A stretch of DNA of 64,000 bases from Nitrospirota bacterium (GTDB lineage Bacteria; Nitrospirota; UBA9217). Below the pieces are notes generated by a model. It ran no database searches. It saw only the letters and a program-made list of their open reading frames with translations, and had not been told where the DNA came from. The DNA lies in assembly GCA_963840455.1 (NCBI GenBank), contig CAWIYV010000010.1, forward strand, positions 382,785 through 446,784. The letters are read 5' to 3'. How positions within the stretch are numbered: position 1 is the first letter of the stretch; the number at the start of each line of letters is the position of its first letter. Positions 1-29,431 of this stretch are shown here, one piece after another. The position numbers were made by a program, and so were the translations under genes.

Positions 1-255
1 ATACTCCTTGACGCGCGCGGCATTCGGTGTGATGGTGGCGCATTTTACCCCCACGCCGTACTGCTTGATCGCCTCCGCGGCTTCGACCGTGATCCGGTCG
101 TCGGTCTCGTCGCGGTGCTTCATGCCAAGGTCGAAATATTTGAGGTTGACCGTGAGATGGGGCAGGATCAGCTTCTCCTTGATCATCTGCCACATGATCC
201 GGGTCATCTCGTCGCCGTCCATCTCGACGATGGGGTTCTTTACCGTTATGGCCAC
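1..255 (-). CDS. icd: NADP-dependent isocitrate dehydrogenase, N-terminal ~85 aa only (gene runs off the left edge)
   Basis: Minus-strand translation from GTG at 255 (AAGGAG 9 nt upstream) gives [34 protein letters not shown]...[17 protein letters not shown], the conserved N-terminus of dimeric NADP-IDH. Absent from the ORF track because it has no in-window end. Confidence 0.8.
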
Positions 256-293
256 TGGTCCGTTCTCCTTCGGAATGATCCCGTCATGATCCC

Positions 294-716
294 TTACGCG
301 CAGAGCTCGAGGGTGCTGAAGAAATACGCGATCTCGAACGCCGCGGTCTCCGGCGCATCGGAGCCGTGGACCGAGTTTGCCTCCATGCTCTGGGCGAACT
401 CCTTCCGGATCGTGCCGGGCTCGGCATTGGCAGGGTTCGTGGCGCCCATGAGCTTGCGCCACGCCGCTATGGCGTTCTCTTTCTGAAGCACCAGGACGAT
501 GCAGGGTCCGGACGACATGAAGTCCGTGAGGCTGCTGAAAAAGGGCTTCCCCCGATGCACGGCGTAGAATCCCTCGGCCTGCTTTTTGGTCATCCGCAGC
601 CTCTTCATGGCAATGACCTGAAAACCGTTCTCCTCGATCTTCGCGAGGACCTTTCCGGTAATACTCCTGCTGCATGCATCAGGCTTGATGATGGCAAAGG
701 TCTTTTCCGTGGGCAT
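294..716 (-). CDS. ndk: nucleoside diphosphate kinase
   Basis: 140 aa with the canonical NDK sequence (FAIIKPDA..., [34 protein letters not shown]). TAA stop at 296..294. Confidence 0.92.
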
Positions 717-919
717 GGCACTCCCTCCGGCAGGCTTCGGTAATGAACATGAGAACTGATTTTAAAGCGCGTGGGATGAATTGTCAACAGAACAGTGAAG
801 CTCCCTGCAGCGAGCTGCGGGGAGTGCCCTCGCTCCTGGATTCTCTGCGGACCGGGGGGCATGCTTCGCCGGGGAAAACGGTTGCGGAAGATGGCCGGCC
901 ATCAATTGGGTCTGTTCAG

Positions 920-1600
920 CTATCGCTTTTTCAGGAAGACCACTATCGCGCCGCTGCCACCCTTGTCGCGGGGCGCGGCATGGAACTCGGCGACCAGGCC
1001 TTTGCCCTGCTCCCGGAGCCATGCATTAACCGCCCCGGGAAGGACCGGCCCATCTGGCGAGTTGATCCCTTTTCCCGTGATCACGAGGACCGCCTGCAAA
1101 CCACGAGCACAGGCGCCAGCGATGAAGTGCTCGAGCCGCCGGAGCGCCTCGTCCTTCAGAAATCCGTGAAGGTCCAGCTCCTCGCTTATGCGTATGGTGC
1201 CGCGCTTGAGCTGGCGCATCCTGCTGGACGAAGAGCGCGCGGGCGCCTCGTCTTCCGGTTCCGGTGCTCCGTCACGGTACACCGCGGCCCCGATCATGCC
1301 CACCGCTTGAAGAAAAAGAGCCCGCCCGTGTGCTTCGTCATCGACACGCTTTTCTGCAGCCATTGGAGACGTCTGCGGTCCCGGCTCCTGGTCACCGTCC
1401 GCCGCGATCCTCGTAGCGCCTCCCACGGACCGCAGGAAAAGACCTTCATCGTCCTCATGATCCTCGTGCGAAGAGGCCTTTTGTGTCGTTGCCTGCAGCG
1501 GCGGGGTCTTCCCGATGACGCCTTTCAGCGCCTTGAAAGGGCTGTTCTGAAAAGCACCGGCACCTCGCTGATGCTTGCTGTCCTTGCGTTTCCTGGTCAT
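920..1600 (-). CDS. Smr-domain protein (SmrB/YdaL-like endonuclease family)
   Basis: C-terminal Smr domain (LDLHGF...LVITGKG...AVNAWLREQ) and the N-terminal DEGLFLRSVGG motif typical of SmrB-like proteins. Confidence 0.7.
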   Translation of the reverse strand: MTRKRKDSKHQRGAGAFQNSPFKALKGVIGKTPPLQATTQKASSHEDHEDDEGLFLRSVGGATRIAADGDQEPGPQTSPMAAEKRVDDEAHGRALFLQAVGMIGAAVYRDGAPEPEDEAPARSSSSRMRQLKRGTIRISEELDLHGFLKDEALRRLEHFIAGACARGLQAVLVITGKGINSPDGPVLPGAVNAWLREQGKGLVAEFHAAPRDKGGSGAIVVFLKKR

Positions 1601-1674
1601 GAGAATGCGAAGAATGTTCGTGCGCCGGATCGCAGGCGAAACCTCTCGTGGGGCAGAGCGCCGATCCGTTGAGG

Positions 1675-2904
1675 TTAATGGTCGGGATAGCGTTCAGCGA
1701 TGTTGCGGATCGTGTCGATACAGGCAAAGAACGTCTCGACCATCTCGGGATCGAAATGCGTGCCGGAACTGACCTTGAGCTCTTCGAGGACCTGTGCCTC
1801 TTCCCACCGCTCTTTATACGCACGCTTGGAGCTCAGGGCGTCATAGACATCAGCCAGGGCGACAAGCCTGCCGAACACCGGGATCTCATCGCCCTTTTTG
1901 GGCCTCGGTGAACCATCGCTGTTCTCATAGCCCGGCAGCACCTTGGCGTCGAAGGGATTGATATGGCCGGGGTACCCCGTGCCGTCCCATTTCTCGTGGT
2001 GGTTCAGTGCGACCACGGCTGACGCGTCGTCGAACTCAGAATACTGCTCGGAAAAGAGCCGTGCACCCATAATGGTGTGCTGCTTCATGATCTCGCGCTC
2101 CGCGTCGTCGAGTCGCGCCGGCTTCTTGAGGATCGCATCCGAGATTGCCACCTTGCCCACATCGTGGAGCATGGCAGCCATTCGCAGGATGTCGCGGTTC
2201 TTTTCGAGGACATCATGGGGCACGCTGCGTTTGCCCGCCCAGTGCTCGTAGAGAGCCACGGAATAGGATGCCACACGGTTGACATGGGCTCCGGTCTCCT
2301 TGGGGTCCCGCAGCTCCGCCATCTTGATGGTCCGGAGGATCATGGCACGCGTCATCTGGGCGCGCTCGATGGCGACCGCGGCCATGTTGGCGAAATGCAT
2401 GACGAGGGGCTCATCCTTCTTCGAGAACGGCACCACCGCGCCCTTTGCATTCTTTTCGTTGATGAGCTGCAGAACGCCGACCGTGTCGCCACGGTTCGTC
2501 TTGAGCGGGAACGTCAGCATGGACTGGGTGCGATAGCCGGAGAGATCGTCGAACTTGCGGTTGAACGAGAACGGAAGCGTCGAGGGGAGCTTATAGACAT
2601 CCGTAAGGTTCAGCATCTCACCGGTGTTGGCCACATAACCCGCGATGGTCTGATTGTTGATCGGAAGGGTAAAGGTGGAGTAGATCAGCTTTTTCCCGGG
2701 CAGACGCTGCTGGAACGTGTCGTTCTGGGTATAGGTGAACTTCAGTTTGTCGTCTTCCTTCACATAGATGGTGCCGGCGTCGGCGTTCACCAGGCTCCGC
2801 GCTTCCTTCAGGATTCGCTCGAGCAGCACGTCCAGGTCCTTCACCTGGGTGATCTCGATGCCAAGGTTCACGATTTTCGCGAATTTCTGTTTTTCTGTGA
2901 GCAT
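1675..2904 (-). CDS. GAF domain / HD-GYP domain c-di-GMP phosphodiesterase
   Basis: 409 aa with an N-terminal GAF-like region and a C-terminal HD domain carrying the HHEKWDGTGYP (HD-GYP) signature. ATG at 2904. Confidence 0.85.
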   Translation of the reverse strand: MLTEKQKFAKIVNLGIEITQVKDLDVLLERILKEARSLVNADAGTIYVKEDDKLKFTYTQNDTFQQRLPGKKLIYSTFTLPINNQTIAGYVANTGEMLNLTDVYKLPSTLPFSFNRKFDDLSGYRTQSMLTFPLKTNRGDTVGVLQLINEKNAKGAVVPFSKKDEPLVMHFANMAAVAIERAQMTRAMILRTIKMAELRDPKETGAHVNRVASYSVALYEHWAGKRSVPHDVLEKNRDILRMAAMLHDVGKVAISDAILKKPARLDDAEREIMKQHTIMGARLFSEQYSEFDDASAVVALNHHEKWDGTGYPGHINPFDAKVLPGYENSDGSPRPKKGDEIPVFGRLVALADVYDALSSKRAYKERWEEAQVLEELKVSSGTHFDPEMVETFFACIDTIRNIAERYPDH

Positions 2905-2972
2905 GTCGGCTATCTTACATCCCGAAAGAGCGGCTTGTCAATTCAAGGATGGCCAGAAAATCCTTTTCTTAA

Positions 2973-3001
2973 TTGACTCACTACACCTTTTTTGTTATAG
3001 T
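2973..3001 (+). promoter_or_regulatory. sigma70-like promoter upstream of the dksA-like gene
   Basis: TTGACT (2973-2978), a 17-nt spacer, then TATAGT (2996-3001). Followed by a leader hairpin gcgaacgg...ccgttcgc. Confidence 0.4.
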
Positions 3002-3075
3002 ATACCATTCAGCAGCGAACGGTGCGGTCATTCCGTTCGCCTTTTCATTATTACCCGGGAGCAGAGGTCGTTCGC

Positions 3076-3438
3076 ATGAACATGAAGATCAACGCCATTC
3101 GGAAGAAGCTCATGAAACAGCGCGAGGAGCTTTTGTCCGAGGCAGAGCAAACCATCAACTCCAAGCTGGGCGCGGATAAGCAGAGCTTTCCTGACCCCAC
3201 GGACCAGGCCGCGGCGGAACTGGACAACAATTTCATGCTCAGGCTCCGCGGCCGGGAGCAGAAGCTCCTGAAGAAGATCGACGAGGCCATTGCCCGCATC
3301 GACGAGGGATCATATGGCATATGCGAGTCCTGCGGCGGCCAGATCGGTTTCAAGCGGCTTGAGGCCCGGCCGGTCACGACGCTCTGCATCGAGTGCAAGA
3401 CCGAACAGGAAGAGAACGAGAAGCGCCAGGTGGGGTAA
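3076..3438 (+). CDS. dksA: DksA/TraR-family C4-type zinc-finger transcription factor
   Basis: Coiled-coil region plus CESCGGQIGFKRLEARPVTTLCIEC zinc finger. ATG at 3076 (alternative 3082). The track ORF 3022..3438 starts from an upstream non-ATG codon. Confidence 0.8.
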   Translation: MNMKINAIRKKLMKQREELLSEAEQTINSKLGADKQSFPDPTDQAAAELDNNFMLRLRGREQKLLKKIDEAIARIDEGSYGICESCGGQIGFKRLEARPVTTLCIECKTEQEENEKRQVG

Positions 3439-3576
3439 GAGCGGGACAGGTTCCGGTTGAATCCAGGAGCGAGCGCATTCCCTGCAGCTTGCCGCAGGAT
3501 TCGTGAGCGATTAGAATAAACATACTGCACTGAGGATCGAAGACTCCCTGCAGCTTGCTGAAGGGAGCTTCAACAT

Positions 3577-3609
3577 GGCTGACCGTCATTGGTCGGCCTT
3601 TTGTTTTTG
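3577..3609 (+). terminator. rho-independent terminator after the dksA-like gene
   Basis: Stem ggctgacc/ggtcggcc (one mismatch) followed by ttttgtttttg. Confidence 0.5.
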
Positions 3610-3657
3610 TGGTGGACGGCAGGGTCCAGCTCCCTGGCCGCTGCCGTGTACCGACCC

Positions 3658-5517
3658 TCAGAGCATCAGCCCCTCGGCGATCTCGGAGTTGACCTGATGG
3701 ATCCATTGCACGATCCGGTGATGCACATTTTCCTGCATGTCCTCGAAACACAATCCGACATAATAGGCCGCATCCTGCTTCCTGGCGTGGTAGACCGTTG
3801 CGCGTATCGTGATGTTCTCCAGTTCAAGCAGGCTGAAGTTCACATTCACCTTTGAACCGATCCCGACCGGGGAACCGACCACCAGAAGGCATCCTGTTGG
3901 GCTGATGTTCTTCACCATGGCCGTGAACGCTTCATCGGGAAAACCTGCGAGCGAGTAGACTGCCGGGGCATCCGTCGCCTTCCGCATATACTGACGCGCG
4001 CCGCCCTTTACGCTTACGACTTCCGCGATGCCGATAGGCTGGTCCTTCCCTTTTACCATCACCGGATGCAGGTCCTTCAACGACGCCTGGTCGCCGATCG
4101 CCTCGGCAATTGCCCTGCTTACCAGGACCATGCCCGGCTGCGCGATCCCGCACATTCTCGCCGCGATGTTGATGTTATCGCCGATCACGGTATAGTCCAT
4201 ATGGTCTTCCGAGCCCATATTGCCCATGACGACCTCGCCGTTGTTCAGGCCGATCCCGATGCTGATCACCTTTTCCCCCGCAGCTGACCGCGCAGCATTC
4301 AAGGCCTTGCAGTAGCTCTGGATCTCCACGGCGGCCCGTACTGCGTTGATCTCGTTGCCCCGCCCCTCAAAGATGGCCATCACCTCATCGCCCACAAACT
4401 TATCGATCGTGCCGCCGAACTGATGGATAACCTTCGCCTGCAGGTTCAGATAGACGTTCATCAGCCTGACCACGTCCTCAGGGCTCATCTTCTCGGAAAG
4501 CGAGGTGAAGCCGCGCGCATCAGAAAAGAGGGCGGTCACGTACTTCCTCTCCCCTCCCAGCTTCAACTGCGTCATATCGCGATGCTCCTTGATGCTCTGG
4601 ACCGTGGGCTGGGACAGGTACTTCTCCATGAGGAGCTTTTCCCGAAGGCTCAGGATCATCTGGTTGAAGACATTGGTGAGCTTGCCGATCTCGTCGCTCG
4701 AGCTTACGGGGACCAGCCTGCGCAGGTCGCCGCGCGCAACGACCTGGATGCCTGCCGCGAGTGAATCAAGCGGTTTCGTGATAAGGCGGGCGAGCGCAAA
4801 TGAGATCAGCAGTCCGCCGACAACGAATCCCAGGGCCATCCCGAGGTAAACGCTCTGCTGCCTGCGGATGGCCTTGTTCAGCGCTTTCTGAGAGATCCCG
4901 ATGCGCGCCACGCCGATCTTGAGATTCTTCGTCTTCAGCATGATGGGGATTGTGGTGTCCAGGACAGGGTCGTTCCCGGCAATGGTCTCCTGGAATAGCA
5001 AGCCGTTGGCGTGTAGTGCCGCCAGGTCCGCCGAGCCGGCAAGGAGCGCCCCTTTCTTGGTCAGGTCGCTGTGCGCGAAGACCTCCCCCTTATCGTCCAT
5101 GACCATGGCATAGACAACGTCCTCACGCTGCCGGATGTCCGTGATGGTGGAATAGACCGGCAACTCCTGTTTCGTAAGCAGACCTTCTTTCCCGACGTTC
5201 GCAAGCTGGTTGACCAGCGTTTCCGCGCGGCTTTTCATTTCTTGGCGCAGGATGGCGTTCTGCTGGGTGAAGGTCACCACGCCGAGGGAGATAACGGCGA
5301 GGCTCAGGATCACGATGAGCGTTCCGGCGATCTTGTACCGGACGCTGATCGAGAAAAGAAACTGGAGAAGGCGAGAAGGCGTTTCTGGGTTCTCAGCCTC
5401 CTGCGTCGCCACGGACAGGGCGGCAGCGCTCATCTGCTCCAGCTTCGGCTGTTCCTCCATCGTGGGTTCAGCAGCAATGCTGGCCGCCTCCTTGTTATAT
5501 TCCGGTTCATTGCTCAT
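3658..5517 (-). CDS. membrane-bound class III adenylate/guanylate cyclase with HAMP linker and C-terminal PilZ domain
   Basis: 619 aa. TM segment, periplasmic sensor region, a second TM and HAMP, then the CYCc catalytic core (YVTALFSDARGFTSL...FVGDEVMAIFEG). The C-terminal ~110 aa carries the PilZ signatures RQYMR (RxxxR) and NISPTG (NxSxxG). ATG at 5517 overlaps the upstream gene stop (ATGA). Confidence 0.8.
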   Translation of the reverse strand: MSNEPEYNKEAASIAAEPTMEEQPKLEQMSAAALSVATQEAENPETPSRLLQFLFSISVRYKIAGTLIVILSLAVISLGVVTFTQQNAILRQEMKSRAETLVNQLANVGKEGLLTKQELPVYSTITDIRQREDVVYAMVMDDKGEVFAHSDLTKKGALLAGSADLAALHANGLLFQETIAGNDPVLDTTIPIMLKTKNLKIGVARIGISQKALNKAIRRQQSVYLGMALGFVVGGLLISFALARLITKPLDSLAAGIQVVARGDLRRLVPVSSSDEIGKLTNVFNQMILSLREKLLMEKYLSQPTVQSIKEHRDMTQLKLGGERKYVTALFSDARGFTSLSEKMSPEDVVRLMNVYLNLQAKVIHQFGGTIDKFVGDEVMAIFEGRGNEINAVRAAVEIQSYCKALNAARSAAGEKVISIGIGLNNGEVVMGNMGSEDHMDYTVIGDNINIAARMCGIAQPGMVLVSRAIAEAIGDQASLKDLHPVMVKGKDQPIGIAEVVSVKGGARQYMRKATDAPAVYSLAGFPDEAFTAMVKNISPTGCLLVVGSPVGIGSKVNVNFSLLELENITIRATVYHARKQDAAYYVGLCFEDMQENVHHRIVQWIHQVNSEIAEGLML

Positions 5518-5846
5518 TTAGTTTCGATTTCCTCGAGGGTCTTCAGTATGCGTTCGATCTTCTTCAGATTCTCCTGCGCCTTCACCCCGAGGGTGGTTTT
5601 CGGCCCGAGCGCAAGGGCCTGCTCGAACGCCTCCTTGGCCTCTCCGTAATTCTCCCGGGAGTACTGCTGGACACCGAGGTCGTAATACTGCTTCTGGGCC
5701 TTGGCATCAGCATGCTGGCGGGCCGGCGACCTCGAAGGTGCAGTTGGAGGCGGGGGGGGCGTTTTTTTGAACAACGCGCATCCGGACAGAACGAGCAGCA
5801 TCATGCTGCAGATGAACAATTGTACCAGTGAACTTCGGGTCTTCAT
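5514..5846 (-). CDS. lipoprotein with proline-rich linker and TPR-like helical domain
   Basis: Signal peptide with lipobox LSGC, a PPPPPTAPS linker and a TPR-like C-terminus. The stop overlaps the cyclase start by 4 nt (translational coupling). Start taken at the internal ATG at 5846; the track ORF extends to 5942. Confidence 0.6.
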   Translation of the reverse strand: MKTRSSLVQLFICSMMLLVLSGCALFKKTPPPPPTAPSRSPARQHADAKAQKQYYDLGVQQYSRENYGEAKEAFEQALALGPKTTLGVKAQENLKKIERILKTLEEIETK

Positions 5847-6020
5847 GAACTTGTCTGGTGTCAACCTCGTAAGCTCCTTCGCTGTCAATCCCGAGACCGA
5901 TGCCGCCCTCCGGGTCGGTACCGCGCGCTGTTTTCCGTTCATAGCGATATAAATATATCACAAAAATACCGTGATGGGCAAAAAAAGTGGGTTAGCGATG
6001 GTCTGCTAACCCTTTGATTA

Positions 6021-6067
6021 CATGGTGGGCGCTGCAGGGTTTGAACCTGCGACCCCTGCCGTGTGAA
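6021..6067 (-). repeat. truncated 3' copy of tRNA-Val(CAC) (attR-like direct repeat)
   Basis: Exact 47-nt match to the 3' end (CCA end, T-arm, 3' half of the anticodon arm) of the tRNA at 11531..11605. Sequence diverges immediately beyond. Confidence 0.8.
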
Positions 6068-6343
6068 TGACCTGCTGTATGAGAAACACGTTTTCCTTAC
6101 AATGGAAAATAGTGGAAATCTAATCGCTTTGATCTATTCAAAGGAGGGAACATCTCTCCCATTTTTTTCCTATTTCTTCTGTCTACTATACAATTACTAT
6201 ACAGTCCCTCAAAAAAAATGCTTTCCGCCATGCAGAGTGGAACAGCCCCCTCCCCTCTGGTCGACGAAGACTTGGTTAAGCATGCTACCTGGGATGATCT
6301 GCATGAAAACATACGGGACAGGATTTTTCGGAATAGGTTCGTT

Positions 6344-7387
6344 CTAACGATGTTGGTGGTAAATTTCTTCGAAAATAAAGCCAGAAATCTCTGCGATGGT
6401 AGTATCCAGATACTCGGGTATGGGACCTGAGGTCATCACACACAAAAGGTAGGGATGACCCGGATAATAAACAATTCCGCAATCATGCAGCTGTTTTATC
6501 CCTTTTATCTTCCGCAAACCGAACTTATGCGCGACTGCGATATTGGGAGGCACTCCGGCAACTAAACCTTTTTTGTAATCAGTTTTTGTGAGATATTTTA
6601 AAGCCTTTTCGGACATTTCTCTACTTAGGTATGAGGCATTGAAAAGAACGCGGAAGAAAGACGAATATAATTCTGCTGAGAGCACATAACCACTTTCGTC
6701 ATTTAAATAATAAGGGTCGGGAATGCCCAAGTCATCATATGCCTTTCTGAGGTCAATCTTACTAATTGCTTCTTCAAGGAGTAGAGAGGAAACATTATCA
6801 GAATAATCAATCATTCTTATCAGCAAGTCTTCAACTGTGTAAGACCTGCCAAACAACAATTTATCAGCTACATCGGTATTTTGGATTGATTTAAGGTCAG
6901 GATTTTTATAGGCAATTCTTTTAGTCAGTATCTGGGGGTCCGTTTCTGCCTTTTTCAAGACGGAGATCATTTCAGGCACCTTCAGTAAGCTTGCCGGATA
7001 GAATTGTGTATCTTTCCCTATGTTGAAAGCATGTCCGTCGTTGAGTTCACGATAATATACCGAGATCTCATCGCCCCATCTCTTTTTTACGTTTTCTCTT
7101 ATAAATTTTTCAACATGATCTCTCATCGGTTTGAGTTCAGGGTCCGACAGCAGATTTGTAGCTTGCTCGCATTCCAACAAAGGATTTATATAGTTCCAGC
7201 CTCTCTGTCGGATCTCGATGACTTGAGGCTTTGATTTTTCCGGGATGAAACCTCTAAGCATGAACCCGACGGAAAATCCGGCAAGAAGGGTCAGGGCCAG
7301 CGTCAGATATTTACGAAATGGACTTTTGGATTCGAAATTACTGTTCATACCATTATTAAGACTGTCAATCAACTTTTTTGAGGCCAT
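6344..7387 (-). CDS. membrane-anchored serine hydrolase, class A beta-lactamase-like
   Basis: 347 aa with an N-terminal TM anchor, an SxxK motif (ASLLK), an SDN motif (YSDNVSS) and a KTG-like motif (HKFG). Low-GC gene inside the island. Confidence 0.65.
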   Translation of the reverse strand: MASKKLIDSLNNGMNSNFESKSPFRKYLTLALTLLAGFSVGFMLRGFIPEKSKPQVIEIRQRGWNYINPLLECEQATNLLSDPELKPMRDHVEKFIRENVKKRWGDEISVYYRELNDGHAFNIGKDTQFYPASLLKVPEMISVLKKAETDPQILTKRIAYKNPDLKSIQNTDVADKLLFGRSYTVEDLLIRMIDYSDNVSSLLLEEAISKIDLRKAYDDLGIPDPYYLNDESGYVLSAELYSSFFRVLFNASYLSREMSEKALKYLTKTDYKKGLVAGVPPNIAVAHKFGLRKIKGIKQLHDCGIVYYPGHPYLLCVMTSGPIPEYLDTTIAEISGFIFEEIYHQHR

Positions 7388-7771
7388 CAGGAGAAGGTTG
7401 TCATGGCGGCAAATGACTTTTGCTGCCTTATTAACCTATCCGAAAGCACATGTCAAGCTCAATCATTTAAGCAGGGTTGATCTTCCCTGATTATTCATTG
7501 GTAGAAAACCGCTTCGTGGTGCACTGCATGCACTCTTCTCTCCGGCTTCTACCCCGGCCACTGTGATTGCCGGTCTATTTCTTCATAAATAAGCGTAGTG
7601 ACATCACGAATGATGTTCGTTATTTTCCCGGAATCTTCCCCCAGGGCAGTTCGTCAGTACTATGTGATCACCTGAAAAGGCGATTCAACGACGAGCACAA
7701 GCCTGCCGCATTGCTGGCCGGCATGAGCCTAGCATTGCAGAAGCTATGCTGAGAAGAGAAAGCGTCCGAGG

Positions 7772-10700
7772 TCAGTGCGGCTCCCCGCGCGGGAAGTAAG
7801 TTCCATACCCTGCCAGCTCCCGCGAGAGGCGGGTCACTAAGAGTTGCACTGTTATAGACTGTGCATTCTTAGCGGGCAGAAGAGGGCCGTATTTTCTCCA
7901 TAGAAGACCAGCTTCTTGTATGTTGCCTACCGCCAAATCTCCCAACATTCCTGCAGATAATGTATATTCTAGGAGATCGGCATCTACTGCATTCTGCTCC
8001 ATCTGCACCAATATTTTTTTCGAATATTGGGCCATGCCTGCAGCGTCTTTTTTCCCCACGGCCTTGATGAGTTCAATGAAGTCGCGCTGTGAATCGGAAA
8101 GGGATTTTGAACATGATGAAGTTTCGATGCTCTTCAAAATCCGCGAAAGCTGTTCCGGCGACCAGCAGGGAACGAAGTCAGCGACAACATGAAGCATCGC
8201 CATCCACCATTCTTGCCTCAAAGAATCCTCTGAACATTTTCTGGTGAGCGCCTGTTTGGCATTCATAACGAGCTGTCGGCTCTGGTCCCGCAGCGGCGCA
8301 TACGGATGGCTCCATTTCATTTGATCATTCATAAAATACTGAAAGATCATGTTAGCAAAATGGATCCTAATTGATTTTGGAAAAGTGGAATACGCCACCG
8401 GAGAGATGCTGACATCTGAATGCTTCTTTCCGAGCATGTGCATGATCGGCAGTCGACCAAACTCGATACTGTGAAACTGTGGAGAGGCCGTTAGATCGTA
8501 AAAACGGCTTTTTACAGCATAGAGATCTACGATCGGTTCGTAGTCCGAATTGGCCGCCGTGCCGTAGCTTTCAAAAAGAGGCGAGAGCATCGATTTATTC
8601 CCAAGGACACGGACATTGATATCCGGCAGGCCCATGACATCGACCTTATTCAGTTCATTCATGAGTGACTCAATGGCCAAGAATGAAATTTTCGGTTCCT
8701 GGACATCTCCTACAGGACACGCTACAATGAGCATGTCGTAAGGATTTGTCGCGTAGATGATATAATCGGAGAAATAAGGCGCAAGAGCCTTCATGATAGA
8801 AGCAACTAGCGACATGTCAATGTCGTAGAGGTGGATCCACTGAACGAACAAGCCGTCTTTGGTAAGATATTCGCGTACCCGAGAGTAAAATTCCTTCGTA
8901 AAAAGGCTTGCAACACCGCTGACCCAGGGATTGGAAGGCTCAGAGATGATAAGATCGTATTGTTTGTTCGTGAATGAAAAATATGACTTCGCATCTTCGA
9001 TCCGCACATGACTGCGAGGATCGTCATATGCGAGCCTGACACGTGGACCGAAAAGCCTTGCAGCCTTGATCATTTCCGGCTCTATCTCTATTGTATCAAC
9101 ACTGTTGATATTCGGAACCGTCAGCAGGGTGTGGGTTGTCAATCCTGAGCCCCATCCGATGATGGCTGCTGTCCTGGCTTCGGGTCGATGAATGATACCG
9201 ATAGCGCCTGCCAATACCATGGTTTCTTCATCCTTTGAATGTCCCCTGCCGGTTATTTGCAGGCCCGCATCGGATTTCCCATTGGTTTTGATCGACATGT
9301 TCTGCAGGTCCTTGGTTATTGATACCGTGGCTGTTTTACCATCGCGGTGATAAAGGACCTCTTCTTTAGTCTGATCGGGCAAAATTCCAAATCGATAGAC
9401 CCCCGACGCCATTTTGCCGGGGTCGAGCTTCAACCAGAACATCGGGAGCACAAGAGCGACGACGCCCGCGATTGTATATACGGCGGGGATACGCCAGGAG
9501 GGGAACGCCCACCATGCCAGACCGAGTCCAAGAGCGATGTCTATGCCTGCTCCAAGAATGATCATGCCTTTGAGACCCAGCAAAGGCATCGCCAGATGGA
9601 CAGCCATAAAGACGCCGAGGATCGATCCTATGGTATTGAATCCATAGACCGCGCCAATGCTCCGTTCGCCCGATCCGCTTCGGAGAAGTCCATTCGTAAT
9701 AAGGGGAAGCGTCATGCCTGCACAAAAAGCGGCAGGCAGCATGATGACGAGTGCGATGCCGTTACTGGTGAGATTAAAGAGAAAGTATCCTGCATTGGTT
9801 TTTGGTAAATTCCTGATCAGCCATGCCATCGCGCTGAAAGTGCCGCCATAAATGGGAAGGGTCGCCAGGGCCAGAATCCCCATGGCGACCTGTACCAAGG
9901 CCAAAAACCGGCGCGGATCATCGAATGAATCAATTCGTCGTTTGATCCAGAGGCCGCCGAGCGCAATGCCCGTGATGAAGGCGCTCAACATGAGCTCAAA
10001 GGCATGGGTAGACGCGCCCAGAACGAGACTCAGCATTCTGATCCAGCCGATCTCATAGATGAACGAGGACAGTCCCGTAAGCAGAGCGATCAAGAGGAAG
10101 ACTTTATAAACGAGACCTCGCGAAGTGCCGGGAACATCGGTTTTCGTTTGAATAGATGCTGAGACCTGAACAGATGAACTCCTTTTGTCTTCAATCCAGA
10201 CAATAGCAGCCACCATGATGTTGATGCAGCCGGCAAGGACAAGCGTGCCCGGCAGGCCGACCCATCCAATGAACAGAAAACCGGCCGCCAGAACGCCGAT
10301 TGCGGCGCCTATGCTGTTCGTAAAATAGAGCATGGCCACAAGAGAACCAGAAGATTGTGGAAATCTCCGTATAAGCCCTGCGGTCATGAGCGGGAAGGTC
10401 ATTCCCAGCAGAATGGACTGCGGCAGGATCAACAGACTGGCAGCGGTCCACTTAAAAACGGCCACTGCCGTAGGCGAGCTTAACGCGGGAATGAACTTCG
10501 CGTACGTTAGCTCGATAAAGTGGACATAAAGTGGATGGAAAAAAATCGCGCAGACACCGATGACCGTTTCAACAACTGCATATCCGATCAACAGATTGGG
10601 GAGCCGCTCGGAATATTTCGAACAGATCAAGGCTCCTGATGCCATACCCCCCATGAACACAGCGAGAACGAGAGCTTGAGCGTATGCCGCGTGCCCTAAG

Positions 10701-10816
10701 AAAAGTTTTAAATAGTGTGTCCAGATGGATTCATATATAAGGCCGGCAAAACCTGAAGCGGTAAACATAAGGAAAAAAAGACGAAGACTTATATTGTTCA
10801 TGAGGTTTTTCTCCAC
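7772..10816 (-). CDS. fused MFS-type membrane domain / spermidine-synthase-like (aminopropyltransferase) protein
   Basis: 1014 aa. About 480 aa of a polytopic MFS-like membrane domain, then a PABS/spermidine-synthase-like domain (IIGWGSGLTTHTLL, IEIEPEMIKAARLF, DLIISEPSNPWVSGVASLFTKEFY), then a long C-terminal extension. Confidence 0.8.
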   Translation of the reverse strand: MEKNLMNNISLRLFFLMFTASGFAGLIYESIWTHYLKLFLGHAAYAQALVLAVFMGGMASGALICSKYSERLPNLLIGYAVVETVIGVCAIFFHPLYVHFIELTYAKFIPALSSPTAVAVFKWTAASLLILPQSILLGMTFPLMTAGLIRRFPQSSGSLVAMLYFTNSIGAAIGVLAAGFLFIGWVGLPGTLVLAGCINIMVAAIVWIEDKRSSSVQVSASIQTKTDVPGTSRGLVYKVFLLIALLTGLSSFIYEIGWIRMLSLVLGASTHAFELMLSAFITGIALGGLWIKRRIDSFDDPRRFLALVQVAMGILALATLPIYGGTFSAMAWLIRNLPKTNAGYFLFNLTSNGIALVIMLPAAFCAGMTLPLITNGLLRSGSGERSIGAVYGFNTIGSILGVFMAVHLAMPLLGLKGMIILGAGIDIALGLGLAWWAFPSWRIPAVYTIAGVVALVLPMFWLKLDPGKMASGVYRFGILPDQTKEEVLYHRDGKTATVSITKDLQNMSIKTNGKSDAGLQITGRGHSKDEETMVLAGAIGIIHRPEARTAAIIGWGSGLTTHTLLTVPNINSVDTIEIEPEMIKAARLFGPRVRLAYDDPRSHVRIEDAKSYFSFTNKQYDLIISEPSNPWVSGVASLFTKEFYSRVREYLTKDGLFVQWIHLYDIDMSLVASIMKALAPYFSDYIIYATNPYDMLIVACPVGDVQEPKISFLAIESLMNELNKVDVMGLPDINVRVLGNKSMLSPLFESYGTAANSDYEPIVDLYAVKSRFYDLTASPQFHSIEFGRLPIMHMLGKKHSDVSISPVAYSTFPKSIRIHFANMIFQYFMNDQMKWSHPYAPLRDQSRQLVMNAKQALTRKCSEDSLRQEWWMAMLHVVADFVPCWSPEQLSRILKSIETSSCSKSLSDSQRDFIELIKAVGKKDAAGMAQYSKKILVQMEQNAVDADLLEYTLSAGMLGDLAVGNIQEAGLLWRKYGPLLPAKNAQSITVQLLVTRLSRELAGYGTYFPRGEPH

Positions 10817-10873
10817 TGATACTTATTTTTTCTCATCTCAAACGATTCATTACATGAAATAGTAGTAATGACA

Positions 10874-10898
10874 CTCCCCCGGCAGGAGCCGGGGGTTT
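10874..10898 (+). repeat. 25-nt hairpin repeat (copy 1): ctcccccggcaggagccgggggttt
   Basis: Exact 25-mer also found at 50057..50081. Stem cccccggc/gccggggg with loop agga, followed by T residues. Confidence 0.7.
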
Positions 10899-10904
10899 CT
10901 TAAA

Positions 10905-11311
10905 TTACAACGTCAATTGCTGTTGCCCTTTGTCTTCCTTTTCCTGATAGGAAACATAAGCGAGAATTTCCTTTTCGTTCAGCCCGATACACCATACACA
11001 ATATGCTCGCGACCAGATGCCTTCTTTGCTTGCGTATGTTTTGTGATAAAAAGGAAATTTCGCCTTAAGCTTTTTCGCCGATTGTGACTTGATGTACTGT
11101 ACGACGTCGGCAACTGCAATTTTCCGCGGAACAACGATTACCATGTGTACATGGTCTATCCGCACACTGAGCTTGATTACCTCGATATCGGGATCAAGAT
11201 CTGGGAGATAACCAAGCGTCTTGGCCGCATACTCCTTGACACCCTTTACGAAGATCTTCCGCCGATATCTCGATATCCAGACGAGATGCTACTCTTTTTT
11301 GTAAATGCCAT
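10905..11311 (-). pseudogene. tnpA: IS200/IS605-family Y1 (HUH) transposase TnpA, apparently frameshifted near the N-terminus
   Basis: The frame from 11283 reads HLVWISRYRRKIFVKGVKEYAAKTLGYLPDLDPDIEVIKLSVRIDHVHMVIVVPRKIAV...SRAYCVWCIGLNEKEILAYVSYQE (HUH HVHM and catalytic Y region). The ATG at 11311 (MAFTKKSS) is in another frame. An in-frame TAG precedes HLVW. The shift sits at a T6 run (11295-11300). No tnpB present. Confidence 0.65.
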
Positions 11312-11530
11312 GGGCACTCTTTCGATATCTCATGCCCCATCATATCAAATACCATCTCGTCTGGATAGCCGCTAAATCACCAGACAGGGGTTTGGTATTT
11401 TATGCGGCTCAATAAAGGTTGAAGCTTGCATTACACCCGTCCCCAAACTGCACACCGCCCACCAATCGCACAATTACTGCACAAGAAACAGAAAAGGAGT
11501 CAGCATTTTCTGCTAACTCCTTGTAATTCA

Positions 11531-11605
11531 TGGTGGGCGCTGCAGGGTTTGAACCTGCGACCCCTGCCGTGTGAAGGCAGTGCTCTCCCGCTGAGCTAAG
11601 CGCCC
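11531..11605 (-). tRNA. tRNA-Val (anticodon CAC)
   Basis: Cloverleaf confirmed by hand: acceptor GGGCGCU/AGCGCCC, D-arm GCUC/GAGC, anticodon stem CUGCC/GGCAG with loop UUCACAC, T-arm GCAGG-UUCAAAC-CCUGC. CCA is encoded. Confidence 0.9.
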
Positions 11606-27685: not shown

Positions 27686-29431
27686 TCACGCGTTCACCAT
27701 CGAGTTCGTCGCGCAGAGCTGACTGCAGACACCACAGCCGTTGCACAGGAGCGCGTCAACCTCGGCATGACCCTTCTTGCCCTCGGGAACAAATGAGAGC
27801 GCGATGCATCCTGCCTTGAGGCAGGCCTTGCAGCCCACGCAGGTATCGGTATCGACGCGGTACGACTTCTTGGAGACCTTATACCGCAGCACGCAGGGCT
27901 GGTTCGAGATGAGCACCGCGGTCCCGGGCGCTGCGAGCTCTTCCTTCATGATCCGCTCAAGCTCTTTCAGATTATAGGCGTCGATCTCGCGCACGCGCTT
28001 CGCGCCGATGGCCTGGCAGAGCTTCCCGATGTCGAGCTTCGGCGCGGCGGAGCCTGCGGCAGTCCGTCCCGTTCCGGCGTGCTCCTGGCCGCCGGTCATG
28101 CCTGTCGTGTCGTTGTTCATGATGACGACAAGCGCGTCGCCGCCGTTGTAGACCATGTCGATGAGCCCGGTGATGCCGGAATGGAGGAACGTGGAGTCGC
28201 CGATCACGGCCACGGGCTTCTGCTTCACGCCCCTGAGGGCCAGGCCGCGCGAGATGCCGTGGGCGCCGGAGATGCTCGCGCCCATGCAGATGCAGGTGTG
28301 CATGGACGAGAACGGCGGCAGGGCGCCAAGGGTATAACAGCCGATGTCGCCGGACACGAAGAGCTTCAGCTTTGCGATGACGGTGTAAAGGCCGCGGTGG
28401 GAACAGCCGGGGCAGAACGTGGGCGGACGGACGATGAGGCCACCGACCGGGAGCTTGCACGCAACCGCGGAGCCGCTGACCGCCTCGCGGATGGTCCGGG
28501 AGGTGAGCTCGCCGCAGGGCGGAAAGGCCGTCTTGCCGAAGTGGACCGTAATGCCCATAGCCTTGAGCAGTTCCTCCACGAAGCCGTCGAGCTCCTCGAC
28601 GACGGCGAGCTTCGTGACGGACGCCGCGAAACCGCGGAGCTTCTTCTCCGGAAGGGGATAGGTCATGCCGAGCTTCAGGACCGGCGCATCCGGGAACGCC
28701 TCGCGGACATACTGGTAGGCGATGCCGTTGGCGATAAAGCCCACATCGCCCTTCCCGGGCCGGACCTCGTTGAATGCTGCGGTCTCGGCGTATTCGCGGA
28801 GCTTCGCGAGCCGCTCCTCGACCACGAGATGGCGCTTCTTGGCGTTCGCCGGCAGCATCACGTACTTCGGCACGTCCCGGGCGAGGTCGCGGTCCTTGAC
28901 TGCGGCAGGCTCCGCGGTCTGGACAACGCTTTTGCAGTGGGAAATTCGGGTGGTCGTGCGCAGGATCACAGGTGTGTCGAAGGATTCTGAGAGTTCGAAG
29001 GCAGCGCGCACGTAAGCCCGCGCTTCATCGGAGTCCACCGGCTCGATGCAGGGGATCTTCGCCATGCGGGCGTAGTGCCGCGTGTCCTGTTCGTTCTGCG
29101 AGCTGAACATGCCCGGATCGTCCGCGGCCATCAGCACGAGACCCGCGTTCACGCCGGTGTAGGCCACGGTCATGAGCGGGTCCGCGGCGACGTTCACGCC
29201 CACGTGCTTCATGCAGGCCAGGGAGCGCACGCCGGCCAGCGAGCCGCCGATGGCTACCTCCATGGCCACCTTCTCGTTCGTGGACCACTCGGCATGGATC
29301 CCCTTCTCGCGCGAGAGGGTCTCGAGCACTTCCGTGCTCGGCGTGCCGGGGTAGGCGGCGGCGATCTTGCCGCCTGCTTCAAGGAACCCGCGGGCGATGG
29401 CTTCGTTGCCTGAAAGGATTGCTTTCGTCAC
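27686..29431 (-). CDS. iorA: indolepyruvate ferredoxin oxidoreductase subunit alpha
   Basis: 581 aa. TPP-binding domain and two C-terminal 4Fe-4S motifs (CVGCKACLKAGC; CNGCGVCSQLC). GTG start. Confidence 0.85.
   Translation of the reverse strand: MTKAILSGNEAIARGFLEAGGKIAAAYPGTPSTEVLETLSREKGIHAEWSTNEKVAMEVAIGGSLAGVRSLACMKHVGVNVAADPLMTVAYTGVNAGLVLMAADDPGMFSSQNEQDTRHYARMAKIPCIEPVDSDEARAYVRAAFELSESFDTPVILRTTTRISHCKSVVQTAEPAAVKDRDLARDVPKYVMLPANAKKRHLVVEERLAKLREYAETAAFNEVRPGKGDVGFIANGIAYQYVREAFPDAPVLKLGMTYPLPEKKLRGFAASVTKLAVVEELDGFVEELLKAMGITVHFGKTAFPPCGELTSRTIREAVSGSAVACKLPVGGLIVRPPTFCPGCSHRGLYTVIAKLKLFVSGDIGCYTLGALPPFSSMHTCICMGASISGAHGISRGLALRGVKQKPVAVIGDSTFLHSGITGLIDMVYNGGDALVVIMNNDTTGMTGGQEHAGTGRTAAGSAAPKLDIGKLCQAIGAKRVREIDAYNLKELERIMKEELAAPGTAVLISNQPCVLRYKVSKKSYRVDTDTCVGCKACLKAGCIALSFVPEGKKGHAEVDALLCNGCGVCSQLCATNSMVNA

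Follow-up and report, generated by a model that had tools for sequence, protein, structure and literature searches.

A cyclase-PilZ fusion coupled to a small lipoprotein in Nitrospirota: a candidate adenylate cyclase gated by cyclic diguanylate

The window analysed here is a stretch of 64,000 nucleotides from a Nitrospirota bacterium (assembly GCA_963840455.1, contig CAWIYV010000010.1, positions 382,785 to 446,784 of the forward strand), and coordinates refer to this window unless another locus is named. Close to its start lie two minus-strand genes, one for a small lipoprotein and the other for a membrane-bound sensor cyclase with a PilZ domain at its C-terminus. Next to this pair are dksA and a gene for a GAF/HD-GYP protein. 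A preliminary description of the DNA had grouped these genes as a single cluster for cross-talk between cyclic diguanylate (c-di-GMP) and a cyclic mononucleotide. The core unit is a pair of genes, encoding the lipoprotein and the cyclase-PilZ protein, and not a four-gene cluster.

The cyclase-PilZ gene (3658..5517, minus strand) is an open reading frame (ORF) of 619 codons, as first described. The protein consists of a transmembrane segment (TM1), an sCache_3_2 sensor domain, a second transmembrane segment (TM2), a HAMP domain, a class IIIb cyclase domain and the PilZ domain. Pfam calls were judged by the curated cut-offs, and all four domains score above them. The sCache_3_2 domain (4858..5250; residues 90-220) reaches 41.0 bits for a cut-off of 28.4. 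The sensor had been announced as a dCache domain; this identity was rejected, as Pfam assigns sCache_3_2, which is a single Cache domain. A hydropathy scan gives two hydrophobic segments at residues 53-86 and 221-250, with transmembrane cores at approximately 60-83 and 223-245. The Cache domain is placed in the periplasm because these two segments bracket it, and the region shows a helix-sheet-helix order in the AlphaFold2 (AF2) model. The HAMP domain, named in the preliminary description and present here at 4639..4794 (residues 242-293), scores 52.5 bits against a cut-off of 25 and is joined to the cyclase domain by a linker of residues 294-325. The class III catalytic domain spans 4009..4542 (residues 326-503) according to Pfam and to alignments with Cya2 and CyaB, the Guanylate_cyc match (PF00211; residues 326-493) scoring 67.8 bits against 21.9. 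The PilZ domain (3697..3996; residues 508-607) matches PF07238 with 42.1 bits (E 1.2e-10, cut-off 22.5) over profile positions 3-101 of 102. All of these domains are encoded on the minus strand.

The selection acting on the protein was estimated as the ratio of non-synonymous to synonymous substitution rates (dN/dS) in a codon-level comparison with six orthologues, in which the synonymous rate is near saturation and the values are approximate. The lowest ratios along the protein, 0.02-0.08, are found in the HAMP and linker segment. The Cache region has values of 0.10-0.28, and the N-terminal tail 0.39-0.89. The PilZ region, at 0.06-0.21, resembles the Cache region, lies far under the N-terminal tail and is under purifying selection.

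The solved structures closest to the catalytic domain are Cya2 of Synechocystis (2w01; E 3.9e-36), CyaB of P. aeruginosa (3r5g; E 1.8e-32) and 6fht, a Cya2-derived chain fused to a bacteriophytochrome and deposited as an adenylate cyclase, with E values from 1e-32 to 1e-38. Both aspartates of the metal-binding pair are in place, as Asp333 (FSDARGFT) and Asp377 (FVGDE), and the transition-state pair is kept as Asn450 and Arg454 (NIAAR). Among the substrate-specifying residues, Lys373 aligns with a lysine in 6fht and with a glutamate in the guanylate cyclase Cya2. Thr443, within YTVIGD, is the same residue as in CyaB, and Cya2 has a glycine at this position. D333, K373, D377, T443, N450 and R454 are invariant across 29 orthologues of 56-89% identity. 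The catalytic set is complete for an adenylate cyclase of class IIIb, in which threonine takes the place of the class IIIa aspartate. As Lys373 and Thr443 match the pair that specifies adenine in this class, the set points to cyclic adenosine monophosphate (cAMP) as the predicted product, and not to cyclic guanosine monophosphate (cGMP). A guanylate cyclase reading was rejected on the same pair, Cya2 carrying glutamate and glycine in place of lysine and threonine. The enzyme had been described as forming cAMP or cGMP; the first half of that statement is kept and the second dropped. By analogy with related cyclases, homodimeric active sites would be expected.

The two PilZ signatures are confirmed by translation. 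The RxxxR motif is RQYMR (residues 508-512, encoded at 3982-3996) and begins four residues past the final strand of the cyclase domain. The [D/N]xSxxG motif is NISPTG (residues 537-542, encoded at 3892-3909). R508, R512, N537 and G542 are invariant across the 29 orthologues. The AF2 model of residues 495-619 folds as a six-stranded barrel with a C-terminal helix, and the predicted local distance difference test (pLDDT) of its core exceeds 90. When this model was compared with the PDB by Foldseek, the best 48 matches were all PilZ domains, headed by BcsA (E 1.1e-6) and including MrkH, MotI, YcgR, Alg44, VCA0042, PlzA and MapZ, many of them solved with c-di-GMP. The Pfam match above cut-off and the fold thus agree on the identity of the C-terminal domain. 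A sequence search of the PDB with the PilZ segment alone returned only armadillo-repeat matches, which are spurious. From its motifs and fold, the domain is predicted to bind c-di-GMP.

The lipoprotein gene (5514..5846, minus strand) encodes 110 residues if translation begins with the ATG at 5846, and 142 residues from an alternative start codon, the ATG at 5942. A consensus scan found a promoter-like site upstream of the pair (5952..5981, minus strand), which is a pattern match only, and a terminator-like hairpin at 6012-5989 precedes it. The protein begins with a signal peptide and the lipobox LSGC (MKTRSSLVQLFICSMMLLVLSGC). Members of the family share a signal peptide, a lipobox of the form [LV][AS]GC, a proline-rich linker and a conserved C-terminal domain of approximately 65 residues, with the consensus ...KAQQQYYDLGLQQYSKENYGEAKEAF...LGPNT.LG.KAQENLKKI..ILKTLEEIESK. 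The lipobox is present in nine of the ten lipoprotein orthologues compared, the sequence from L001 being truncated. The C-terminal domain is TPR-like only by its sequence, as its scores stay below the TPR cut-offs (25.2 of the required 27 bits for TPR_2, and 23.5 of 27.8 for TPR_1). Other matches of the lipoprotein are weak and fall on the N-termini of BamD and PilW.

The ATGA overlap between the stop codon of the lipoprotein gene and the start codon of the cyclase gene is seen at 5517-5514 (...ACT AAA TGA / ATG AGC AAT...), as the preliminary description had it. A lipoprotein homologue lies directly upstream of the cyclase gene in all 11 orthologous loci examined, and nine of them keep the overlap. 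In a tblastn comparison of eight window proteins with loci from GTDB species representatives, the seven loci L001-L007 (57-75% identity), all of which have upstream sequence, each carry the lipoprotein directly upstream. In each of five more relatives, the gene table places the end of the lipoprotein gene 4 nucleotides within the cyclase gene. This lipoprotein is absent from PilZ-less sCache-HAMP cyclases. The coupling of the genes suggests that the lipoprotein may interact with the sensor. As a separate observation, a conserved multi-TPR protein of 418 residues follows PilZ-less sCache-HAMP cyclases in two loci (L088 5692-6948 and L089 5677-6933), and partners of the TPR type may be common to the sCache-HAMP cyclase sensors as a class.

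The four-domain architecture occurs in at least 120 orthologue clusters (at the 90% identity level) with 58-94% identity. Nearly all are metagenomic, and the named ones are Nitrospirota metagenome-assembled genomes (MAGs) or MAGs with older "Deltaproteobacteria" labels. One orthologue contig is labelled Nitrospirota class UBA9217. The cyclase-PilZ half of the protein was searched against 1.84 billion cluster representatives, and the matches were scanned with Pfam. In these matches the Guanylate_cyc-PilZ module is also found behind four other types of sensor, namely CHASE2 (P0152), GAF (P0161), dCache_1-HAMP (P0167) and FHA-GAF (P0212), and the GAF type is present in a Planctomycetota MAG as well (L066). 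In every sensor context, RxxxR and [D/N]xSxxG stand directly C-terminal to the cyclase domain. A stand-alone cyclase-PilZ protein of 320 residues (P0126) was rejected as a truncated gene, its cluster mate P0390 being a sensor protein of 536 residues. PilZ is present in only three of the 120 best database relatives of the modules with other sensors. The fusion had been called uncommon, which holds in that most related cyclases lack PilZ and fails in that the fusion recurs across several sensor types. Being both rare and recurrent argues for a fusion that is selected, not accidental. No fewer than five sensor types precede the module, as would be expected of a general design more than of a single oddity.

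The neighbouring genes are arranged in a way that separates them from the pair. The most likely start of dksA (3076..3438, plus strand) is the ATG at 3076, from which the product has 120 residues as in relatives; a longer ORF of 138 codons begins at the GTG at 3022. The product exceeds the cut-off of the TIGR02420 equivalog (129.2 bits against 115.5), matches Pfam DksA_N and zf-dskA_traR, and contains a C4 zinc finger (CESC...CIEC) and the coiled-coil tip DPTDQA (DxxDxA). By sequence it looks like an ordinary housekeeping factor of RNA polymerase. The GAF/HD-GYP gene (1675..2904, minus strand) encodes 409 residues with Pfam GAF, HD and HD_5 matches. Its GAF domain lies at 2362-2838 (residues 23-181) and its HD-GYP domain at 1690-2322 (residues approximately 195-405), both on the minus strand. 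The best solved homologue is PmGH (4mcw; E 1.9e-49), with which the motifs HDVGK and HHEKWDGTGYP align, as they do with PA4781 (4r8z). The phosphodiesterase 5z7c, which acts on cyclic GMP-AMP (cGAMP), also matches (E 3.3e-27), and some HD-GYP proteins are known to prefer 3'3'-cGAMP over c-di-GMP. The protein is probably a c-di-GMP phosphodiesterase, to judge from these motifs. An insertion of 21 residues, GHINPFDAKVLPGYENSDGSPRP, stands right after GYP (1906-1968; residues 313-333) and is found in neither PmGH nor PA4781. The top relatives of the protein are approximately 409-412 residues in length.

dksA runs towards the cyclase gene and away from the HD-GYP gene, convergent with the first and divergent from the second, which places them in separate transcription units. 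An intrinsic-terminator-like hairpin with a T-tract follows dksA between the convergent genes (3577..3608, plus strand; hairpin 3577-3598) and is conserved in the syntenic loci L081 and L084. The divergent intergenic region between dksA and the HD-GYP gene (2905..3075) has promoter-like sites in both directions, at 2941-2912 on the minus strand and 2973-3001 on the plus strand. The region between dksA and the cyclase gene (3439-3576) contains two copies of TCCCTGCAGCTTGC (3479-3492 and 3545-3558), each within a small hairpin. This repeat stretch has no aligned counterpart in L081 and L084, with which the window shares only the terminator hairpin here. In the matching region of relatives, an ORF of 44-53 residues is called by gene callers. 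No Rfam family, such as a c-di-GMP riboswitch, matched positions 1-8000 of the window, the TCCCTGCAGCTTGC region included, at E <= 0.1.

The order of genes in relatives gives the same division. Only relatives with 78% identity or more (P0003, P0007 and P0014) have dksA, the GAF-HD-GYP gene, smr and ndk beside the cyclase gene. In L001-L007, tblastn found none of the HD-GYP, DksA, Smr and Ndk homologues at a distance of up to 8 kb from the cyclase gene. At 72% identity, the gene downstream of the cyclase gene encodes a kinase resembling the phosphoenolpyruvate synthase regulator. In GCA_964447405.1 the cyclase pair and the dksA/HD-GYP block are approximately 143 kb apart on one contig. Across Nitrospirota, divergent dksA and GAF-HD-GYP genes, followed by smr, are kept on their own in unrelated contexts, the arrangement being recorded at 1675-3438 in the window, 5462-7997 in L086 and 5471-7955 in L087. 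The supposed cluster is a lineage-specific juxtaposition of two blocks that are conserved independently. The operon or cluster reading was rejected on the strand layout, the terminator-like and promoter-like sites and the comparative gene order, and with it the description of these genes as one cross-talk unit. Two statements about the neighbours survive in part. The GAF/HD-GYP protein is genuine, its adjacency being lost beyond close relatives, and the DksA-like factor is above its family cut-off, as a member of its own conserved block in a separate transcription unit. Adjacency is weak evidence of wiring, because the blocks adjoin in close relatives alone (78% identity or more). The conserved pairing of dksA with the GAF-HD-GYP gene hints at a link between a stringent-response factor and c-di-GMP turnover, or at a stable shared promoter region.

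Two further genes were observed in related loci. An orthologue of 69% identity (L085) has a gene with an HDOD/HD domain, a signalling-associated family, directly downstream of its cyclase-PilZ gene on the same strand (8980-9810). In L086 of GCA_964447405.1, a receiver-type response regulator with a faint PilZ match (1-320) is encoded at a distance of 5.7 kb, upstream of the HD-GYP block, and is a further sign of c-di-GMP signalling in the lineage.

On the other side of the pair, positions 6021-11605 contain a segment of 5.4 kb (approximately 6068-11487) with a GC content of 0.41-0.53, compared with 0.57-0.61. It is flanked by tRNA-Val(CAC) (11531-11605, minus strand) and by a partial duplicate of the 3' part of this tRNA and the hairpin downstream of it (approximately 6021-6067). 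The segment contains a Beta-lactamase2-family gene (6344-7387) and a gene for a membrane protein of 1014 residues with a spermidine-synthase domain (7772-10816). The syntenic loci L081 and L084 do not have the segment, which resembles a tRNA-targeted island that lacks an integrase.

The features of the pair are consistent with the cyclase-PilZ protein being a periplasm-sensing adenylate cyclase allosterically gated by c-di-GMP, and the balance of probability is judged to tip slightly towards this reading. Under the mechanism proposed, a small periplasmic TPR-like lipoprotein would be made in translational coupling with a homodimeric class IIIb adenylate cyclase of the inner membrane, which would receive two inputs. 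The sCache domain would sense an extracytoplasmic signal, probably with or via the lipoprotein, and the signal would reach the catalytic dimer from sCache by way of TM2, HAMP and the linker. The second input would be cytoplasmic c-di-GMP, bound by the C-terminal PilZ domain. Ligand-induced ordering of the RxxxR arm is a well-known behaviour of PilZ domains. Here, c-di-GMP would order the short RxxxR linker and clamp the PilZ barrel onto the catalytic dimer; the docked PilZ domain would then shift the geometry of the dimer and change the output of cAMP. The effect of c-di-GMP on the cyclase could be either activation or inhibition.

A number of points weigh against a cyclase gated in this way. 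His439 (4201-4203) replaces an arginine found in both Cya2 and CyaB, and activity could be lower as a result. The arginine, three residues ahead of the YT motif, contacts the triphosphate, and it is accessory and not a class-defining residue. Most of the 29 aligned orthologues have a histidine at this position, and such a family-wide change could point to a low basal activity or to a different handling of the substrate. Ten of the 29 orthologues have glycine, asparagine or cysteine for the serine of the second PilZ motif, which is fully canonical in the window copy, and binding of c-di-GMP may be weaker or altered in that part of the family. The AF2 model of the full-length monomer is only moderately confident in the cyclase domain. 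The coupling between PilZ and cyclase is proposed by analogy, because this model is moderately confident and contains neither a dimer nor a ligand. No diguanylate cyclase gene was found in the 64-kb window by a regular-expression screen and Pfam; the c-di-GMP candidates flagged by the screen (at 27975, 54291, 56134 and others) were rejected, as Pfam identifies them as GyrB, SurA, SerRS or nothing. No biochemical evidence for any cyclase-PilZ member was found in full-text searches of the literature. The case is built on domain logic from organisms that have not been cultured, and the adjacency of the HD-GYP gene is not conserved.

Of the other explanations, the one that survives best is a feedback between two messengers, in which the cyclase-PilZ protein turns the level of c-di-GMP into an output of cAMP and the GAF domain of the HD-GYP protein senses cAMP and adjusts the hydrolysis of c-di-GMP. 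By sequence, this GAF domain has GAF domains that bind cyclic nucleotide monophosphates (cNMPs) as its best PDB matches, with E values of 1.1e-26 to 1e-16. The matches are to PDE5 (1.1e-26, GAF-A scoring best), CyaB2 (6e-20), PDE10 (3e-17) and GAF-B of PDE2 (6e-17), and the GAF domain of PmGH itself is weaker (6e-12). A segment FN..D..GY.T.S.L..P is common to the HD-GYP protein and the cNMP-binding GAF domains, and its FNRKFDDLSGYRTQSMLTFPL aligns with 21 residues of PDE5 GAF-A, in the NKFDE-region segment. In addition, Tlr0485, another GAF-HD-GYP protein, is reported to need cAMP (bioRxiv 10.1101/2021.11.05.467447). The cyclase-PilZ and HD-GYP genes adjoin in three relatives as they do in the window, and both are also present in one genome where they are not adjacent. 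Against the circuit, the adjacency is limited to close relatives with the genes in separate transcription units, the HD-GYP gene is part of its own block with dksA and smr, and the non-adjacent co-occurrence comes from a single genome. The feedback explanation is unlikely on this evidence, though not negligible. Equally doubtful is the wider proposal of a closed loop of c-di-GMP and cAMP in Nitrospirota into which the lipoprotein and Cache domain would feed an envelope or environmental signal. If the HD-GYP protein were responsive to cAMP, activation through PilZ would give homeostatic negative feedback, and inhibition a bistable cAMP-high/c-di-GMP-low toggle.

Somewhat less likely again is that PilZ serves as a c-di-GMP-dependent module for docking or localisation and does not gate catalysis. 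With c-di-GMP bound it would recruit or release a further protein, in the manner of YcgR or MapZ, or it would position the cyclase in the cell and leave its intrinsic activity as it is. Many PilZ proteins do act by contacting other proteins, the Foldseek matches include MotI, YcgR, the MapZ-CheR1 complex and MrkH, and a conserved C-terminal helix extends past the barrel. The position of the RxxxR arm, four residues from the catalytic domain, and the order of cyclase followed by PilZ, fixed in every sensor context, are both in keeping with intramolecular control. The gene tables of orthologous loci also show no conserved gene for a cytoplasmic partner beside the cyclase gene.

It is quite improbable that PilZ is a structural remnant which does not bind c-di-GMP, leaving a protein that merely senses the periplasm and makes cAMP. 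The motif serine, which gives way to G, N or C in 10 of the 29 sequences aligned, would agree with a remnant, as would seven orthologues that fall under the precomputed Pfam threshold for PilZ (P0044, P0054, P0057, P0058, P0075, P0077 and P0083). It is opposed by the invariance of the two arginines, the asparagine and the glycine, by the dN/dS of 0.06-0.21, by the retention of the motifs in independent cyclase-PilZ lineages and by the complete canonical motifs of the window copy. The weakest alternative, that the catalytic domain yields cGMP or a pyrimidine cyclic nucleotide of the Pycsar defence type, draws on the inability of PF00211 to tell substrates apart and on a weak match to the cytidylate cyclase 8jsf (E 6.6e-4), and is highly improbable given the adenine-specifying Lys373 and Thr443 (glutamate and glycine in Cya2), the adenylate cyclases that head the structure matches and a neighbourhood in which the ORF list and Pfam show no defence-type effector gene.

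If the cyclase is gated by c-di-GMP as favoured here, it would be the first enzyme to connect the two messengers directly in the direction from c-di-GMP to cAMP. In Pseudomonas, a lowering of cAMP by c-di-GMP is known. The known cross-talk at the level of enzymes runs from cAMP to c-di-GMP (Bd1971, Lcd1 and Tlr0485), and no characterised example of the reverse was found in full-text searches of the literature; a cyclase with a built-in PilZ domain would provide this route in one protein. The fusion had been called uncharacterised, and the full-text searches agree with this. They returned no description of a cyclase-PilZ protein, which may yet be mentioned briefly in PilZ reviews or listed elsewhere, and most co-occurrences of "PilZ" and "adenylate cyclase" concern bacterial two-hybrid methods, the others being generic lists. 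Annotation pipelines have already seen the architecture, as JGI labels these proteins "class 3 adenylate cyclase". The components, class III cyclases and PilZ effectors, are known; their combination, with a c-di-GMP to cAMP direction, would be new. The module is abundant in uncultured Nitrospirota, in which signalling is essentially unstudied. If active and responsive to c-di-GMP, it could be used as a converter of c-di-GMP into cAMP in synthetic biology or biosensing.

The closest known relatives of the catalytic half are the HAMP-linked class IIIb cyclases CyaB (3r5g), Spirulina CyaC (1wc0) and Cya2 (2w01). Their catalytic domain is homologous (E 1e-32 to 1e-36), and the full set of metal-binding, lysine, threonine, asparagine and arginine residues and the HAMP domain and linker before the catalytic domain are shared. 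The protein described here differs from them in the additional C-terminal PilZ domain, in His439 in place of arginine and in the dedicated lipoprotein encoded upstream. The nearest parallel for the PilZ half, and the model case of an enzyme gated by a C-terminal PilZ domain of its own, is the cellulose synthase BcsA (4p00), in which a PilZ domain with RxxxR and DxSxxG likewise lies C-terminal to a catalytic domain in one polypeptide. As Morgan et al. reportedly described in 2014, binding of c-di-GMP relieves the auto-inhibition of BcsA. The catalytic fold of BcsA is that of a glycosyltransferase and is unrelated to the cyclase fold, with a sequence identity of approximately 21%, and its mode of coupling cannot be transferred residue by residue because the catalytic domains are unrelated.

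Lipoprotein-assisted sensors of the envelope include YfiB/YfiR-YfiN, NlpE-CpxA, RcsF and QseG-QseE. The pair resembles these in coupling the gene of a small lipoprotein to that of a sensor which sits in the inner membrane and has HAMP and a periplasmic domain, and the N-terminal half of the sensor has weak NCBIfam matches to YfiN and to a YfiR-like-associated kinase family. The lipoprotein differs from YfiB/YfiR, NlpE, RcsF and QseG in having no sequence relationship to them.

The HD-GYP neighbour resembles PmGH (4mcw) and Tlr0485 in its combination of GAF and HD-GYP domains and in its HD and HHExxDGxGYP motifs. It differs from PmGH in the 21-residue insertion after GYP, and it is not co-transcribed with the cyclase gene. 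The review preprint cited above (bioRxiv 10.1101/2021.11.05.467447) reports that Tlr0485 needs cAMP for the hydrolysis of c-di-GMP and gives the ligand of the PmGH GAF domain as unidentified. Two other proteins join a sensor domain for one messenger to the enzyme of the other, as the cyclase-PilZ protein is predicted to do. Bd1971 is a cAMP-sensing cNMP-EAL protein (PMC6717892), and Lcd1 is a GAF-GGDEF protein (cited in PMC7288161). Bd1971 and Lcd1 carry information from cAMP to c-di-GMP, whereas the cyclase-PilZ protein would carry it from c-di-GMP to cAMP.

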